In this document: one piece after another, positions 5,532-44,188 of the stretch
Layout: the number at the start of each line of letters is the position of its first letter
Numbering within the stretch: the stretch's first letter is position 1
DNA from: Bacteroidia bacterium
GTDB lineage: Bacteria; Bacteroidota; Bacteroidia; Bacteroidales; GWF2-35-48
Direction: 5' to 3'
DNA: 64,000 bases
Assembly (NCBI GenBank): GCA_016212695.1
Contig: JACREX010000048.1
Span: 5,984-69,983 of the forward strand
Made by a program: the position numbers and the translations under genes
Notes under the pieces: model-generated
The model's database searches: none
Told to the model about the DNA's origin: nothing
The model's input: only the letters and a program-made list of their open reading frames with translations

Positions 5532-7877
5532 ATGATTGAAAATACTGAACATATTATACAGCAAATCGTCAGCCAATACGGAACATCGAAAGATAAAGCC
5601 ATCCCTGTTTTACAGGCTGTTCAAAAAGAATTTAATTATCTGCCGGATGACGTTTTAAAAAAAGTTTGCGATCTGACAGGTATTTCTTATTCGCGAATAA
5701 TCGGTGTTTCTACTTTTTATTCTCAATTTCGTTTTATACCTGCAGGTAAGCATCTTATAAAAGTTTGTGTGGGTACGGCATGCCATGTAAAAGGCGCTAT
5801 GCAGGTGTATGATGCTTTTTCCCGTTATTTGAAATTGAACCCTGAACATGATACGGATAAGGATGGCCTGTTCACTTTGAAGCAGGTTGCTTGCTTAGGT
5901 TGTTGCACGATTGCGCCGGCTGTTCAGATTGATGAAGTAACCTATGGAAAAGTCGGGCAGAATGATATTGCGGAAATACTAAATAATTTTTTATCAAAAG
6001 CAACCGAAAAATACGTTGAACAAAAATCATGGATACGAAACTCCAAACTGCAGGGTGAAATCCGCCTAGGATTAGGCTCTTGTTGTATTGCCAGCGGCAG
6101 CGAAGATGTAAGGGAAGCCTTGATGGACGGGCTTAAAGCAACCGGGATCCATACTCAGGTGAAACAAGTGAGTTGTGTGGGAATGTGTCACCAGGTTCCA
6201 TTGCTCGAAGTCAAAGACAAGAATGATAGTGTTACGTTTTATTCGAAAGTAGCGCCACAGGATGTAAAAAATATTTTATTGAAACATTTTGAACCCGCCA
6301 ATTTTGTAGATAAGTTGAAAAATAACCTGTTTCAGAAATTAGACCGCCTGTATTTAGACAACCAGGTTTCATCACCAGACAAATGTTATCTTGATGTATC
6401 CGAAAAACCTGTTCAGGATTTTATGAAAAAGCAGGTTCATATCGCCACTGAATTAAAAGGCGTTTTAAATCCGATTGACATTGACGAGTATAAACAAAAA
6501 GGCGGATTTGAAGCATTACAAAAATGTCTGGATGAATATTCTCCGGAAGAAATTATTGAAATGATAAAACAAAGCGGATTACGGGGCAGGGGAGGAGCAG
6601 GTTTTCCAACCGGAGAAAAATGGGAAGCGGTTTATAACCGGCAATCAAATATTAAATATATTATATGTAATGGAGATGAAGGCGATCCCGGCGCATTTAT
6701 GGACCGTATGCTTCTTGAATCTTTCCCATACCGTATTATTGAAGGGATGACGATAGCCGCTTATGCTACCGGTGCAACAAAGGGTTATTTTTATATTCGT
6801 GCTGAATATCGCCTGGCTGTGAAACGAATCCGGGAAGCATTGGCTGAATGTGAAAAGCATGGATTTATAGGAGATAATATATTAAATTCAAAAACTTCGT
6901 TACAGATTGAAATTTTTGAAGGCGCCGGCGCTTTTGTTTGCGGTGAAGAAACCGCCCTGATAGCTTCTATGGAAGGTAAACGCGGCATGCCCCACATGCG
7001 CCCGCCATTTCCTGCTCAACAGGGGTTTAATGGTTATCCTACCTTAGTGAATAATGTTGAAACTTTTGCAAATATTTCGTGGATCATCAGGAATGGAGCG
7101 AATGCTTTTAATAAGATCGGAACATCATCCGGCAAGGGAACGAAAGTATTTGCTTTAGCCGGGAAAATAGCGCGGGGCGGACTTATTGAGGTACCTATGG
7201 GAATTACCATTCGTGAAATTGTTGAGGAAATCGGAGGAGGAATACAGGGAAATAAAAAATTTAAAGCAGTTCAGATCGGCGGTCCTTCCGGTGGATGTAT
7301 TCCTGCTTCTTTGGCTGAAACGCCTGTAGATTATCAATTCCTTAATGAGATCGGAGCCATGATGGGTTCCGGTGGTCTCGTGGTTCTTGACGAAACGGAT
7401 TGCGTGATTGATATAGCGAAATATTTTCTTTCTTTCACCCAAAACCAATCCTGCGGAAAATGTGTATATTGCAGGGTCGGCACAAAGCATATACTCAACA
7501 TCCTTGAAAAAATTTCTTCGGGAAAAGCCAACATGGACGACCTGAAAAAATTAGCGGAATTATCATTTCAGGTAAAAAAAGGAAGTATGTGCGGTCTTGG
7601 AAAAAGTGCGCCAAACCCGGTTATAACAACTTTGAAATATTTCATGGAAGAGTATGAAGCACATATCTCGGGAACCTGTCCTGCGAAAAAGTGTAAAGAA
7701 TTAATAATGTATTCTATTAATGAAAAATGTATCGGCTGCACCCGTTGCGCACAATATTGTCCATCAGGCGCTATTGAATTTAATCCTTACGAAAAGCACA
7801 ATATTGATATTGAAAAATGTATTAAATGCGATATTTGCAAACAGGTTTGTCCGAATGAGGCAGTTGAGAAGATATAG
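5532..7877 (+). CDS. Fused NuoE-like/NuoF-like NAD(P)H-oxidising flavoprotein (HydB/HndC-type) with C-terminal 2x[4Fe-4S] ferredoxin
   Basis: Thioredoxin-like 2Fe-2S motifs (CVGTACHVKG..CLGCCTIAP; GSCCIASG..CVGMCHQVP). NuoF FMN/NADH motifs: GRGGAGFPTGEKW, CNGDEGDPGAFMDR, GAGAFVCGEETALIASMEG. N3-type cluster SCGKCVYCRVG..MCGLG. C-terminal CIGCTRCAQYCP and CIKCDICKQVCP. Confidence 0.85.
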   Translation: MIENTEHIIQQIVSQYGTSKDKAIPVLQAVQKEFNYLPDDVLKKVCDLTGISYSRIIGVSTFYSQFRFIPAGKHLIKVCVGTACHVKGAMQVYDAFSRYLKLNPEHDTDKDGLFTLKQVACLGCCTIAPAVQIDEVTYGKVGQNDIAEILNNFLSKATEKYVEQKSWIRNSKLQGEIRLGLGSCCIASGSEDVREALMDGLKATGIHTQVKQVSCVGMCHQVPLLEVKDKNDSVTFYSKVAPQDVKNILLKHFEPANFVDKLKNNLFQKLDRLYLDNQVSSPDKCYLDVSEKPVQDFMKKQVHIATELKGVLNPIDIDEYKQKGGFEALQKCLDEYSPEEIIEMIKQSGLRGRGGAGFPTGEKWEAVYNRQSNIKYIICNGDEGDPGAFMDRMLLESFPYRIIEGMTIAAYATGATKGYFYIRAEYRLAVKRIREALAECEKHGFIGDNILNSKTSLQIEIFEGAGAFVCGEETALIASMEGKRGMPHMRPPFPAQQGFNGYPTLVNNVETFANISWIIRNGANAFNKIGTSSGKGTKVFALAGKIARGGLIEVPMGITIREIVEEIGGGIQGNKKFKAVQIGGPSGGCIPASLAETPVDYQFLNEIGAMMGSGGLVVLDETDCVIDIAKYFLSFTQNQSCGKCVYCRVGTKHILNILEKISSGKANMDDLKKLAELSFQVKKGSMCGLGKSAPNPVITTLKYFMEEYEAHISGTCPAKKCKELIMYSINEKCIGCTRCAQYCPSGAIEFNPYEKHNIDIEKCIKCDICKQVCPNEAVEKI

Positions 7878-7941
7878 GCTAATATGAGTTCGTTTTTATT
7901 TATTATCAGCATGCAGCCGATTATTGAACACATGAATTGAA

Positions 7942-8994
7942 ATGATACGAATTAAAATAAATAATATTTTTATTGAAGTACCGGATGGCACAATGCTTTT
8001 AAAAGCAGCAGAGCAATTAGGCATTGAAATACCCACACTCTGTTATCTGAAAGATTTTATTCCATCCTCTTCGTGTATGGTCTGTGTTGTTGAAGATAAA
8101 TATTCCGGAAAATTTTTGCCGGCTTGTTCTGCTTTGGCTCAGACCGGAATGATTATTGAAACAGATAATGATGAGGTTAAAAAGCTACGAAAAAATGCTG
8201 TTGAACTTTTATTGAGCGAACATGTCGGCGATTGCGAAGCGCCCTGCAAGAGGGCTTGTCCAGCACACACCAATATCCCAGCGATAAACCGTTTTCTTGC
8301 AAAAGGTGATTTCAAGAATGCAGCAAAAATTTTGCATAAAACAAAACACGGTTGTGCTGAATGTGCAGCTCCCTGTGAAAAGGTATGCAGGAGAAAAAAT
8401 ATTGATGCTGCTGTTTCAATAATGCAATTGCAGGAATTTATTTTTTCACAAAAAGATTTCAAAGAAATACCGTCATCTTCAAAAAGTCAACGTATAGCGA
8501 AACTGAAATTTAATTCAAGCTATGGCAAAATGCGCGATAATGAAAAGCCTGAATTTTTAAAAGAACCAGAAAATGCAAATGCAAGAACTGAACCCAAAGA
8601 GATTCAATCCGGATTTACTGCCGATGAAGCCGTAGCCGAAGCAAAACGCTGCCTGCATTGTGATTGCAGGAAAGCCGATATATGTAAACTGAGATTATTG
8701 GCTGAGAAATTTGAAGCCTGTCAAAGAATCTTTGAGTTGACGGAAAGAAATGATGTATCGAAAATTATTTATCCTGAAAATGTAATTTACGAACCGCAAA
8801 AATGTATTAAATGCGGTATTTGTATTCAGATAACAGAAAAAACAGAGGAGATTGCCTTTACGTTTATCGGAAGGGGGTTTAAAGTTAAGATCGGAGTCCC
8901 GTTTACTGATAAAATATCGAAAGCTTTGAGAAAAACGGCAAAAGAATGTGTTGATTCTTGCCCGACAGGTGCGTTGGCTTTTTATAAAAGTTAA
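7942..8994 (+). CDS. 2Fe-2S / multi-4Fe-4S iron-sulfur protein (NuoG/HydA N-terminal-like plus GltD-N-terminal-like domain); no catalytic domain
   Basis: N-terminal plant-type 2Fe-2S fold (IKINNIFIEVPDGTMLL..CYLKDFIPSSSCMVCVV..LPACS). EHVGDCEAPCKRACPAHTNIP resembles the Fer4_20/GltD N-terminus. Further clusters: CLHCDC..CKL, CIKCGICIQ, CVDSCPTGA. Confidence 0.7.
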   Translation: MIRIKINNIFIEVPDGTMLLKAAEQLGIEIPTLCYLKDFIPSSSCMVCVVEDKYSGKFLPACSALAQTGMIIETDNDEVKKLRKNAVELLLSEHVGDCEAPCKRACPAHTNIPAINRFLAKGDFKNAAKILHKTKHGCAECAAPCEKVCRRKNIDAAVSIMQLQEFIFSQKDFKEIPSSSKSQRIAKLKFNSSYGKMRDNEKPEFLKEPENANARTEPKEIQSGFTADEAVAEAKRCLHCDCRKADICKLRLLAEKFEACQRIFELTERNDVSKIIYPENVIYEPQKCIKCGICIQITEKTEEIAFTFIGRGFKVKIGVPFTDKISKALRKTAKECVDSCPTGALAFYKS

Positions 8995-9033
8995 TTTCAA
9001 ATTTTAAAATGCAGAATCAGTAATTACTAAAAA

Positions 9034-10299
9034 ATGGTGAGATTAAAATATGAGTCCCCTCCGAAAAGTTCAAATGCTGAAAATCCGCTTTGCCCCAACC
9101 CTAAAGGGAGGCTGATTTTCAGCGACTTCCCTTTAGGGATTAAGGGCAAAAAGTCGCTGAAATCATTAAATACGACTTTTCGGAGGGGACTCAAATATAT
9201 AACCCTGATTATTTTTTTCCTTACAAGGACTACCCCGTTCTTTTCTCAGACATCTACCAATTGGCCGATTTATCGGGGCGATAATTCTCTGACAGGAAAT
9301 ACGCAATGTAAAATACCGGAGGGAATGAAGATCCTTTGGTCGTATAAGACGGGCGGAGAAATAAAATCATCTCCCGTGATCAGCGACAACACGATTTTTA
9401 TCGGATCAACCGATGGAAATTTATATGCCCTGAATAAGAACGGATCGCTTAAATGGAAATTTAATACCAAAGTCGCTATTGAGGCTCCGCCGGTGTATAT
9501 AAACCAATTGGTTATTGTCGGAAATCTTGAGGGAACCGTGTATGCTGTCAATGCTGCAACCGGGAAACAAGCCTGGACATATAAAACAGACGGGCAGGTG
9601 AGCGGTTCTGTGAACTGGATTGATATCAATGAGAAAATTCAAATCCTGATACCCAGTTACGACTATGCAATACATTGCGTAAATCTCACGGATGGAAAAT
9701 TAGTCTGGAAATGCGAAACAAATAATTACCTGAATGGAGCGCCAACCACCGACAACAAAAATATTATCATCGGCGGCTGCGATGCAAAAGTTCATATCAT
9801 CAATGCAAAAACCGGGAAGGAAATTGGCGGTGTGGATGCTGGAACATATATTGCTGTTTCTTCTGCGTTATCAGGAAACTACGCTTATATGGGAGATTAT
9901 GATGGAAATTTTTTATGTGTTGACATTATCAATAAAAAAATTGTATGGAAAAAAGAAACTTCGCAAAACGCCCCGTTTTTATCATCGCCTGCAGTTACAA
10001 AAGATAAAGTTATTGCCGGGTCGCACGATAAAAAAGTATATTGCTTTGATAAAAAAAACGGCAAGGTTTTATGGACATTTCAGACCCTTGGAAAGATTGA
10101 AAGTTCACCCGTCATTTCAAATGACAGGGTTTTAATTTGTTCTAAAGACGGATGGATCAGAATTCTGTCTTTAACTAACGGAAAAGAAATCCAAAAGTAT
10201 GAATTGGGTGTGGCAATAACGTGTACGCCGGCTGTTATTGATAATTTAATAGTTGTTGGAGCCGCGGATGGCAAGGTGTATGCATTAGGAAAAAAATGA
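9034..10299 (+). CDS. Secreted PQQ-like beta-propeller repeat protein whose signal peptide is interrupted by a 147-nt in-frame insertion
   Basis: Repeated motifs (IKSSPVISDNTIFIGSTDGNLYAL, IESSPVISNDRVLICSKDGWIRIL, ITCTPAVIDNLIVVGAADGKVYAL). ATG at 9034 is the only in-frame ATG upstream of the h-region ITLIIFFL. Codons 7-55 are encoded by the inverted-repeat element. Confidence 0.7.
   Translation: MVRLKYESPPKSSNAENPLCPNPKGRLIFSDFPLGIKGKKSLKSLNTTFRRGLKYITLIIFFLTRTTPFFSQTSTNWPIYRGDNSLTGNTQCKIPEGMKILWSYKTGGEIKSSPVISDNTIFIGSTDGNLYALNKNGSLKWKFNTKVAIEAPPVYINQLVIVGNLEGTVYAVNAATGKQAWTYKTDGQVSGSVNWIDINEKIQILIPSYDYAIHCVNLTDGKLVWKCETNNYLNGAPTTDNKNIIIGGCDAKVHIINAKTGKEIGGVDAGTYIAVSSALSGNYAYMGDYDGNFLCVDIINKKIVWKKETSQNAPFLSSPAVTKDKVIAGSHDKKVYCFDKKNGKVLWTFQTLGKIESSPVISNDRVLICSKDGWIRILSLTNGKEIQKYELGVAITCTPAVIDNLIVVGAADGKVYALGKK
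9052..9192. mobile_element. MITE-like palindromic element: 18-bp perfect terminal inverted repeats, flanked by AAATAT direct repeats
   Basis: GAGTCCCCTCCGAAAAGT (9052-9069) is the exact reverse complement of ACTTTTCGGAGGGGACTC (9175-9192). AAATAT occurs at 9046-9051 and 9193-9198. Internal 11-bp stems: 9099-9109/9128-9138 and 9118-9128/9151-9161. Confidence 0.6.
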
Positions 10300-43612: not shown

Positions 43613-44188
43613 ATGAATCGGATTATACAAACTGCAGGTCATGTATTAGATGAGCTACGGGGATATGTAATTCATTCTTTACAACAAAAAGGAATTTCCG
43701 GCGAACAGAAGGATGGGATGGATGTGGCATTTGTTGCAATTAACCTCAGCCCTCAGACCACACAGGTTTCGCTTTGCTCTATGCCGGGTAAAACCTGTGT
43801 GGTCTACACCGCTCAATATGCCGGGGCGAATAATCCTGTGTACATTGTAGAGACGGGACATGTCCCGCCGTCTCTACGAGAAATTCGCCCCGACAAAATG
43901 TCCGTAGCCATCCATGAAACCATGCAGCCCTTTACAAATCATAGTATCAAATTACAAAAAGGCGACACGATCTATCTGATAAGCGACGGTTATGCGGATC
44001 AGTTCGGCGGGCCGAAAGGAAAAAAATTTTATGAAATACAATTCAAAGAAATGATATTGGCCAATAGTCATTTGTCAATGGAAAAGCAAAAAGAAATTCT
44101 TGATAAAACCATTGAGGAGTGGAAAAATGGTAATGCTGAAAAATACGACCAAACGGATGATATCACTGTTTTAGGAATTAAAATATAA
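43613..44188 (+). pseudogene. C-terminal half of a SpoIIE/PP2C-type phosphatase domain (N-terminal half missing)
   Basis: Contains KDGMDVAFVAIN, YAGANNPVYIV, LISDGYADQFGG and TDDITVLGIKI (late PP2C motifs). It lacks the upstream metal-binding DxxGHG region. It begins immediately after bioD and contains a palindromic hairpin at 43847-43877. Confidence 0.5.
43847..43877. repeat. Palindromic GTAGAGACGG..CCGTCTCTAC hairpin element inside the PP2C fragment
   Basis: GTAGAGACGG (43847-43856) is the reverse complement of CCGTCTCTAC (43868-43877). The interior GACATGTC is itself palindromic. Confidence 0.7.

Follow-up and report, generated by a model that had tools for sequence, protein, structure and literature searches.

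The 64-kb stretch of the Bacteroidia bacterium contig JACREX010000048.1 analysed here (the window, whose numbering is used for all positions) carries on its forward strand, at 9034–10299, a gene for a PQQ/BamB-like β-propeller protein of 421 amino acids (aa). Its product is a 100% match to MBI5217760.1, annotated as ‘PQQ-binding-like beta-propeller repeat protein [Bacteroidia bacterium]’, and PQQ_2/BamB and β-propeller matches cover it from residue 137 on (Pfam PQQ_2 at 2.9e-43, Beta-prop_ACSF4 at 4.6e-58). Within the signal peptide of this protein, after codon 6 and thus 18 nt inside the gene, lies a MITE (miniature inverted-repeat transposable element; 9052–9192, + strand), which is read in frame and accounts for 49 of the codons together with one copy of its target site.

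The MITE is 141 nt long and forms a single long hairpin. It encodes no transposase, its only open frames being 47-codon read-throughs, and its GC content is 46.8%, compared with 38.8% for the window. It is bounded by terminal inverted repeats (TIRs) of 18 nt, the left one being GAGTCCCCTCCGAAAAGT (9052–9069, + strand) and the right one its exact reverse complement (9175–9192, − strand), so that the two arms are complementary at 18 of 18 positions. The hexamer AAATAT stands on either side, at 9046–9051, where it forms codons K5-Y6 of the propeller gene, and at 9193–9198, where it now forms codons K54-Y55. The chance of such six-of-six agreement, calculated from the composition of the flanks, is about 0.1%. 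Both pairs of repeats are therefore found where the original prediction, an earlier note on this DNA, had placed them. When up to three mismatches were allowed, a scan of the window for the TIR returned the two arms and one unrelated site with three mismatches, whereas shuffled 64-kb sequences gave a mean of 0.03 matches and three matches in none of 100 shuffles. In a promoter and terminator scan around the insertion site, sites were no more frequent than in shuffles.

The same 18-mer is widespread. Scanning one genome per species, we found GAGTCCCCTCCGAAAAGT at no fewer than 120 genome loci (L001–L120) in many phyla; the hosts among the matches listed include Bacteroidales, Saprospiraceae, Polaribacter, Chromatiaceae, Thiotrichaceae and Desulfococcaceae, as well as Treponema, Cloacimonadia, Anaerolineales, Calditrichota and Latescibacterota. 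Viral contigs contained no match to the TIR. In many of the genomic matches a contig ends within about 50–300 nt of the 18-mer, as is characteristic of repeats that break assemblies. The elements fall into two classes. Those of the long class, of about 1.8–1.9 kb, start with the identical 18-mer, end with a similar inverted copy and contain a single open reading frame (ORF) of 509–567 aa, beginning about 100–170 nt inside the end (MFRKS..Q..LF..WHNQF..). Those of the short class measure 88–332 nt and have unrelated interiors.

We analysed 51 short elements, the copy in the window included. An exact 6-bp flanking duplication was present in 29 of them and a 7-bp one in two more, and the duplicated sequences define the target consensus A-W-N-N-W-T (A in 29 of 31, W, N, N, T/A, and T in 29 of 31), which AAATAT fits. 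The targets of DDE transposases are usually roughly palindromic, as this one is. A duplication of 4 bp with TIRs one base longer (T...A) could be ruled out, because TTATTT in L052 and TAAGTT in L102, where the right flank does not begin with A, match over 6 bp. The segment 9052–9192 is thus a genuine MITE: it is short and without a transposase, has TIRs and the duplication typical of its family, recurs at unrelated sites and has an autonomous partner with the same ends. The earlier proposal of a MITE-like element with a 6-bp duplication, which looked to further copies for support, is borne out by other loci that share the TIRs and 6-bp duplications and by copies in other genomes and metagenomes.

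The transposases of the long class contain the domains DUF772 (PF05598) and DDE_Tnp_1 (PF01609), with PF13751 in one of the two tested. In having one transposase of 509–567 aa with the first two of these domains they resemble the IS1182 family of IS5-related DDE transposons, and IS1182 is also their best NCBIfam match (E 1e-27 to 1e-34, with nearly all of the model aligned). However, they score only 97.1 and 117.1 bits against the NF033551 cutoff of 270, and in tblastn they are 23–33% identical to plasmid genes, some of which are annotated as IS1182 family. For these reasons we call the partner IS1182-like and not a member of that family. Judged by these comparisons, the lineage is apparently a deep, unnamed branch related to IS1182. 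Three of the transposases share only 37–45% identity, yet the 18-mer at the start of their elements is the same (L034, L072 and L093 are among the examples), which makes the terminal repeat unusually rigid for so deep an insertion-sequence lineage. In the open-access literature searched, nothing specific was found on the TIR string or on IS1182 MITEs.

Two further observations concern the short elements. Several of them (L005, L033, L053, L051 and L119) share the TIR and differ in their interiors, in which palindromes of G/C tracts recur, for example CCCCTAAAGGGGA...TCCCCTTTAGGGG and CCCCTCCC...GGGAGGGG; these may be a shared hairpin module or a convergent structure. L077 (1788–1975) holds two adjoining copies of a 132-nt MITE, one partial and the other complete and inverted. 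Two exact TIRs stand 188 nt apart there, and a diverged third one lies in the interval, an arrangement that looks like a nested or head-to-head insertion.

Close relatives of the MITE in the window form a 141-nt subfamily. A 141-nt copy with the same interior is present in an uncultured Bacteroidales genome (L052), and a metagenome scan with the interior 25-mer (9114–9138) yielded seven contigs (L121–L127), of which L123 and L126 represent the same locus in two contigs and L127 holds a copy whose left part is missing. Wherever TIRs can be recognised, the copy is exactly 141 nt long. The interiors of the copies are 94–98% identical to that of the copy in the window, and their duplications measure 6 bp where readable, as with AATTTT in L125 and TTATTT in L052. 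All eight of these other copies are intergenic. A core at 9111–9157 (+ strand) is invariant in all eight aligned copies (alignment A2); 25 of its nucleotides (9114–9138) were set by the search pattern, and only the other 22 are independent. Across the subfamily the interior is better conserved than the TIRs, whose arms change in step, and no position varies in the right half of the core, even where the partner with which it pairs on the left does.

Four of the intergenic copies (L052 7316–7456, L123 1828–1968, L124 3183–3323 and L125 10945–11085) start 0–6 nt after a stop codon or overlap one. These gene-end copies sit between co-directional genes, with the element in either orientation. Such a location could mean that the element prefers AT-rich gene ends as targets, or that copies at these places are kept as a terminator-like or stabilising hairpin.

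We then compared the interrupted gene with its relatives. The closest propeller proteins are 48–58% identical and mostly about 370 aa long, and the 49-aa segment occurs in none of the 14 aligned orthologues. Their typical N-terminus consists of M-K/R, about 15 hydrophobic residues and (A/S/G)-Q-T...W-P-x-Y-R-G, while a few of the 14 have unrelated longer called N-termini. Removing the 147 nt of the element and one duplicate gives MVRLKYITLIIFFLTRTTPFFSQTSTNW, and the restored N-terminus, MVRLKYITLIIFFLTRTTPFFSQTSTNWPIYRG, aligns residue for residue with the orthologues. The two expectations of the original prediction on this point, that the deletion restores a Sec-type signal peptide and that relatives have an uninterrupted N-terminus, were thereby confirmed, and the 49-aa segment is not a conserved part of the protein. 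On one side of the insertion, the ancestral codons 1–6 (MVRLKY, 9034–9051, + strand) supply the original start and a positively charged n-region and align with the MK(R/K).. starts of the orthologues. On the other side, the hydrophobic core and c-region ITLIIFFLTRTTPFFS, followed by Q72 (9199–9249, + strand), are intact, with the hydropathy peak at residues 53–58. In the orthologue alignment Q72 is nearly invariant and W77 invariant, and the propeller has lost none of the 57 columns found to be invariant in the alignment of 15 sequences, the window protein among them.

The features of a Sec signal peptide cleaved by signal peptidase I are thus present, namely a positive n-region, a hydrophobic core and a cleavage region matching that of the orthologues. 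Since glutamine habitually follows directly after the signal peptidase I site in Bacteroidetes, the predicted cleavage site lies just before the conserved Q72. The n-region is now 55 aa long, as had been estimated, compared with 2–5 aa in the orthologues with short N-termini. The 49-residue insert contains 10 K/R and 3 D/E and has a net charge of +7. In the loop model of signal-peptide insertion, the region before the hydrophobic core remains in the cytoplasm. No in-frame ATG, GTG or TTG occurs between 9037 and 9325, so any exported product starting at a canonical codon must start at 9034 and carry the MITE-encoded residues; this excludes the alternative, raised earlier, that the element is the 5′ untranslated region (UTR) of a canonical downstream start. 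A Pfam scan of residues 1–88 found no family at E values up to 1, the models of extended signal peptides included.

How surprising is the open frame? Together with one duplicate, the element adds 147 nt, which is 49 codons free of stops in the frame of the ORF at 9034–10299, as claimed, and the element itself is open in two of its six frames (+0 and −1). The chance of about 10% previously put on 49 open codons is arithmetically right, (61/64)^49 being 0.095, but shuffles of the element matched in composition are open in 5% of cases, and two of six frames are open in the subfamily as it exists. Because length plus duplication always comes to 3 × 49 nt and two of the six frames are open, about one-third of subfamily insertions into coding sequence would read through. 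An open frame is therefore not improbable for the 141-nt subfamily.

The family as a whole shows no sign of selection for coding compatibility. Among the 51 short members, (length + 6) mod 3 is distributed 16/10/25, with no bias to multiples of three, most members are closed in all six frames, and one of the 51, the copy in the window, lies inside a real gene. Five others (L051, L066, L074, L078 and L080) were considered as in-frame cases and rejected: frames of at least 100 codons span them, but the translations are low-complexity or nonsense. When the 49-aa MITE peptide was searched against 5.8 billion protein clusters, a single hypothetical protein of 73 aa was retrieved, and the idea of a recurrent protein module was rejected on these grounds. 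The 73-aa JGI ‘hypothetical proteins’ P0121 and P0122 are the only database proteins that resemble the peptide; presumably they arose when an intergenic copy of the element was called as a gene.

At the RNA level, the minimum-energy fold of the element, at −70.6 kcal/mol (z = −9.3 against shuffles), is one long hairpin that combines the TIRs, an outward extension of the first internal stem and a small GCUGA/UCAGC stem at the apex. In context, the start region is paired as well, with U-rich sequence further downstream. The two interleaved internal stems described earlier as 11 bp each do exist and are both 100% complementary; the first is exact (9099–9109/9128–9138, 11 nt), while the second is 12 nt long and lies at 9117–9128/9151–9162 instead of 9118–9128/9151–9161. 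Forcing this second stem gives −65.8 kcal/mol, a cost of about 5 kcal/mol. Among the eight aligned copies, compensatory changes occur nowhere but in the TIR helix (6 of 19 pairs, as with GAGTCCACTCTAAAAAGT and GCTTTTTAGAGTGGACTC in L125), and the inner helices are either invariant or broken on one side only, with no covariation for either stem. The covariation of the TIRs is no argument for an RNA function, because a transposase reading both ends would produce matched changes there. Rfam gave nothing at gathering thresholds over the window, and a permissive search returned generic microRNA-precursor hairpins far below the cutoff. Of the two folds suggested originally, pseudoknot-like or mutually exclusive, the second is the better reading: within one MITE hairpin, the interleaved stems would be two alternative ways of pairing a single central segment. 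Nothing favours a pseudoknot or a riboswitch-like reading, given the costlier second stem and the lack of compensatory changes outside the TIR helix.

From these comparisons we consider it very probable that a MITE was inserted into the signal peptide by an IS1182-like transposase with the reading frame kept. Most likely it is a recent, selfish insertion that is tolerated. In the proposed sequence of events, the non-autonomous 141-bp MITE would have been moved in trans by a DDE transposase of the IS1182-like kind, for which the 18-bp ends serve as recognition sites. The MITE would have entered at the AT-rich AAATAT between codons 6 and 7 of the propeller signal peptide, and repair of a 6-bp staggered cut would have duplicated the hexamer. 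With an addition of 3 × 49 nt and no stop codon in the frame that the element entered, the gene still reads through from its original ATG. The 49 residues, strongly basic as a whole, would lengthen the cytoplasmic n-region to 55 aa and leave the hydrophobic core and the cleavage region intact. If targeting works, the extension would be removed along with the signal peptide, so that the mature protein, from about Q72, would be unchanged, which would explain why the insertion survived. The event appears recent, given that neither the TIRs nor the duplication contain a mismatch and that the GC content of the element differs from that of its host. AT-rich gene boundaries would be the usual landing sites, and this copy seems to have landed 18 nt inside the next gene. 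The in-frame outcome looks like an accident of survivorship and not like an evolved property of the family.

Several results weigh against this account. An n-region of 55 aa is far beyond the usual range of Sec signal peptides, and the hairpin, which begins 18 nt after the AUG in the mRNA, is predicted to be able to lower initiation or elongation. In the window, neither a parent transposase (transposase tblastn) nor a second copy of the element (TIR scan) was found. The 33-mer of the empty site, ATGGTGAGATTAAAATATATAACCCTGATTATT, had no match in metagenome contigs, so that recency and polymorphism have to be read from the perfect repeats. The points on the n-region and the hairpin lead to a different view of the same insertion, namely that it is a knock-out in which the long n-region, the hairpin or both abolish export or translation, leaving a fresh pseudogene that selection would so far have neither purged nor degraded. 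Repeats as perfect as these mean that too little time has elapsed for purging or decay to show, the −70.6 kcal/mol hairpin from position +19 involves the start region in its pairing, and the lack of any other subfamily or family copy in a real gene suggests that intragenic copies are normally lost. On the other hand, the hydrophobic core and c-region are intact, the charge of +7 keeps the positive-inside orientation, all 421 codons are open with every alignment-invariant propeller residue kept, and hairpins are unwound by elongating ribosomes. Weighing these points, we regard a tolerated insertion as somewhat better than an even bet and a fresh knock-out as a possibility of clearly lower weight.

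The other explanations are far less probable. That the element is used and not merely tolerated seems improbable to us, whether as a hairpin or 49-aa basic extension that tunes translation or Sec targeting, which would make it a transposon-born extended signal peptide, or more broadly as a functional RNA or DNA module, the invariant 47-nt core, spread by the MITE to gene boundaries. The invariance of 9111–9157 in eight copies from different samples while the TIRs diverge, the great stability of the hairpin and the several copies 0–6 nt past stop codons, as in terminator-like or stabiliser-like repeats, would fit such co-option. It is opposed by the singularity of the event, with no orthologue carrying the insertion and the peptide essentially absent from 5.8 billion protein clusters, by an N-terminus without a Pfam match and an element without an Rfam family, and by inner stems that lack covariation in a core whose invariance comes partly from the search pattern. 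Still less credible is a non-canonical start at ATA 9199, CTG 9205 or ATT 9208, which would make the element effectively 5′ UTR and leave a short signal peptide. These codons do follow in frame directly after the element, but a presequence beginning there would lack a positively charged n-region, the orthologue alignment points to the ATG at 9034, which has an A-rich leader, as the ancestral start, and the candidate codons lie at the foot of the hairpin in sequence predicted to be paired. Least likely of all is a repeat wrongly joined into the gene during construction of the metagenome-assembled genome. Repeats of this family are often located at contig ends and disturb assemblies; here, the two flanks belong to the same gene, excision exactly restores an orthologue-like N-terminus, and the junctions carry the family-typical 6-bp duplication at a consensus target.

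The type of event is already known, and here it is probably a tolerated accident. According to a 2024 review (PMC10969869), it is ‘not unusual’ for intragenic MITEs to create in-frame fusions, the Rickettsia palindromic elements being the extreme case. Like the intragenic bacterial MITEs covered there (ERIC/IRU, Correia, Nezha, the Anabaena MITEs and QMITE1), the element in the window is small, bounded by TIRs, non-autonomous and hairpin-forming, and in both cases a frame-preserving insertion into a gene, occasional in those families, adds a peptide without known function. Unlike them, it represents a different sequence family and lies inside a cleaved signal peptide. The open-access papers to which our search was limited contained no example of a MITE inside a cleaved signal peptide, and a limited literature search found no description of this MITE family. 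The resemblance to Rickettsia palindromic elements noted originally holds for this single insertion, a palindromic repeat of about 150 nt that is in frame, stop-free and adds about 50 residues. It does not extend to the element family. The Rickettsia elements are recurrently intragenic, with nearly half of the 44 copies in R. conorii inside genes (PMC10969869), whereas one of the 51 short members here lies in a gene, lengths show no multiple-of-three bias, most copies are closed in six frames and the peptide is nearly absent from databases. In addition, TIRs, duplication and autonomous partner are all clear in the family of the window, unlike in the Rickettsia elements.

Two further systems invite comparison. 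In autotransporters and two-partner secretion proteins, extended signal peptide regions give signal peptides of at least 50 residues, with an N-terminal extension placed before an ordinary n/h/c signal. Those regions are conserved and vertically inherited, whereas the extension in the window is transposon-derived, present in one gene only and without a Pfam match. Within the Bacteroidota, the MITEs of Porphyromonas gingivalis (Klein et al. 2015, cited in PMC5771137) are described as breaking short-read assemblies and are not reported inside signal peptides; the likeness is one of description only and implies no sequence relationship.

The locus offers a natural example of why some intragenic transposon insertions survive, combining a length that preserves the frame with a part of the protein that is discarded. 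It also provides a ready-made test of the limits on n-region length and structure in Sec signal peptides of Bacteroidota, since the same presequence is available with and without the 49 residues. More generally, the analysis brings to light a large family, made up of insertion sequences and MITEs, whose 18-bp ends are identical across distant phyla and which fragments metagenome assemblies. Its short derivatives can end up annotated as protein, as in MBI5217760.1 and in the 73-aa JGI ‘hypothetical protein’, and the annotation of MBI5217760.1 should carry a flag for the mobile-element insertion.

Immediately upstream of the propeller gene, a gene for an iron–sulfur (Fe-S) protein (7942–8994, + strand) ends 39 nt before the propeller start and is its probable operon partner. 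In an orthologue locus (L128), a NuoF-like gene of 782 aa, a gene for a Fer2_4 protein and the propeller gene follow one another, and in the window ORFs of 781 and 350 aa precede the propeller in the same way; this shared gene order supports the orthology. L128 has a second PQQ propeller upstream. The pairing of cytoplasmic redox genes, for a NuoF-like Fe-S flavoprotein and a Fer2_4-type protein, with the gene of an exported propeller (window 5532–10299; L128 1–6116) is odd but conserved. Finally, elsewhere in the window, at 43755–43805, a perfect 15-nt inverted repeat (AGACCACACAGGTTT / AAACCTGTGTGGTCT) has its arms 21 nt apart.

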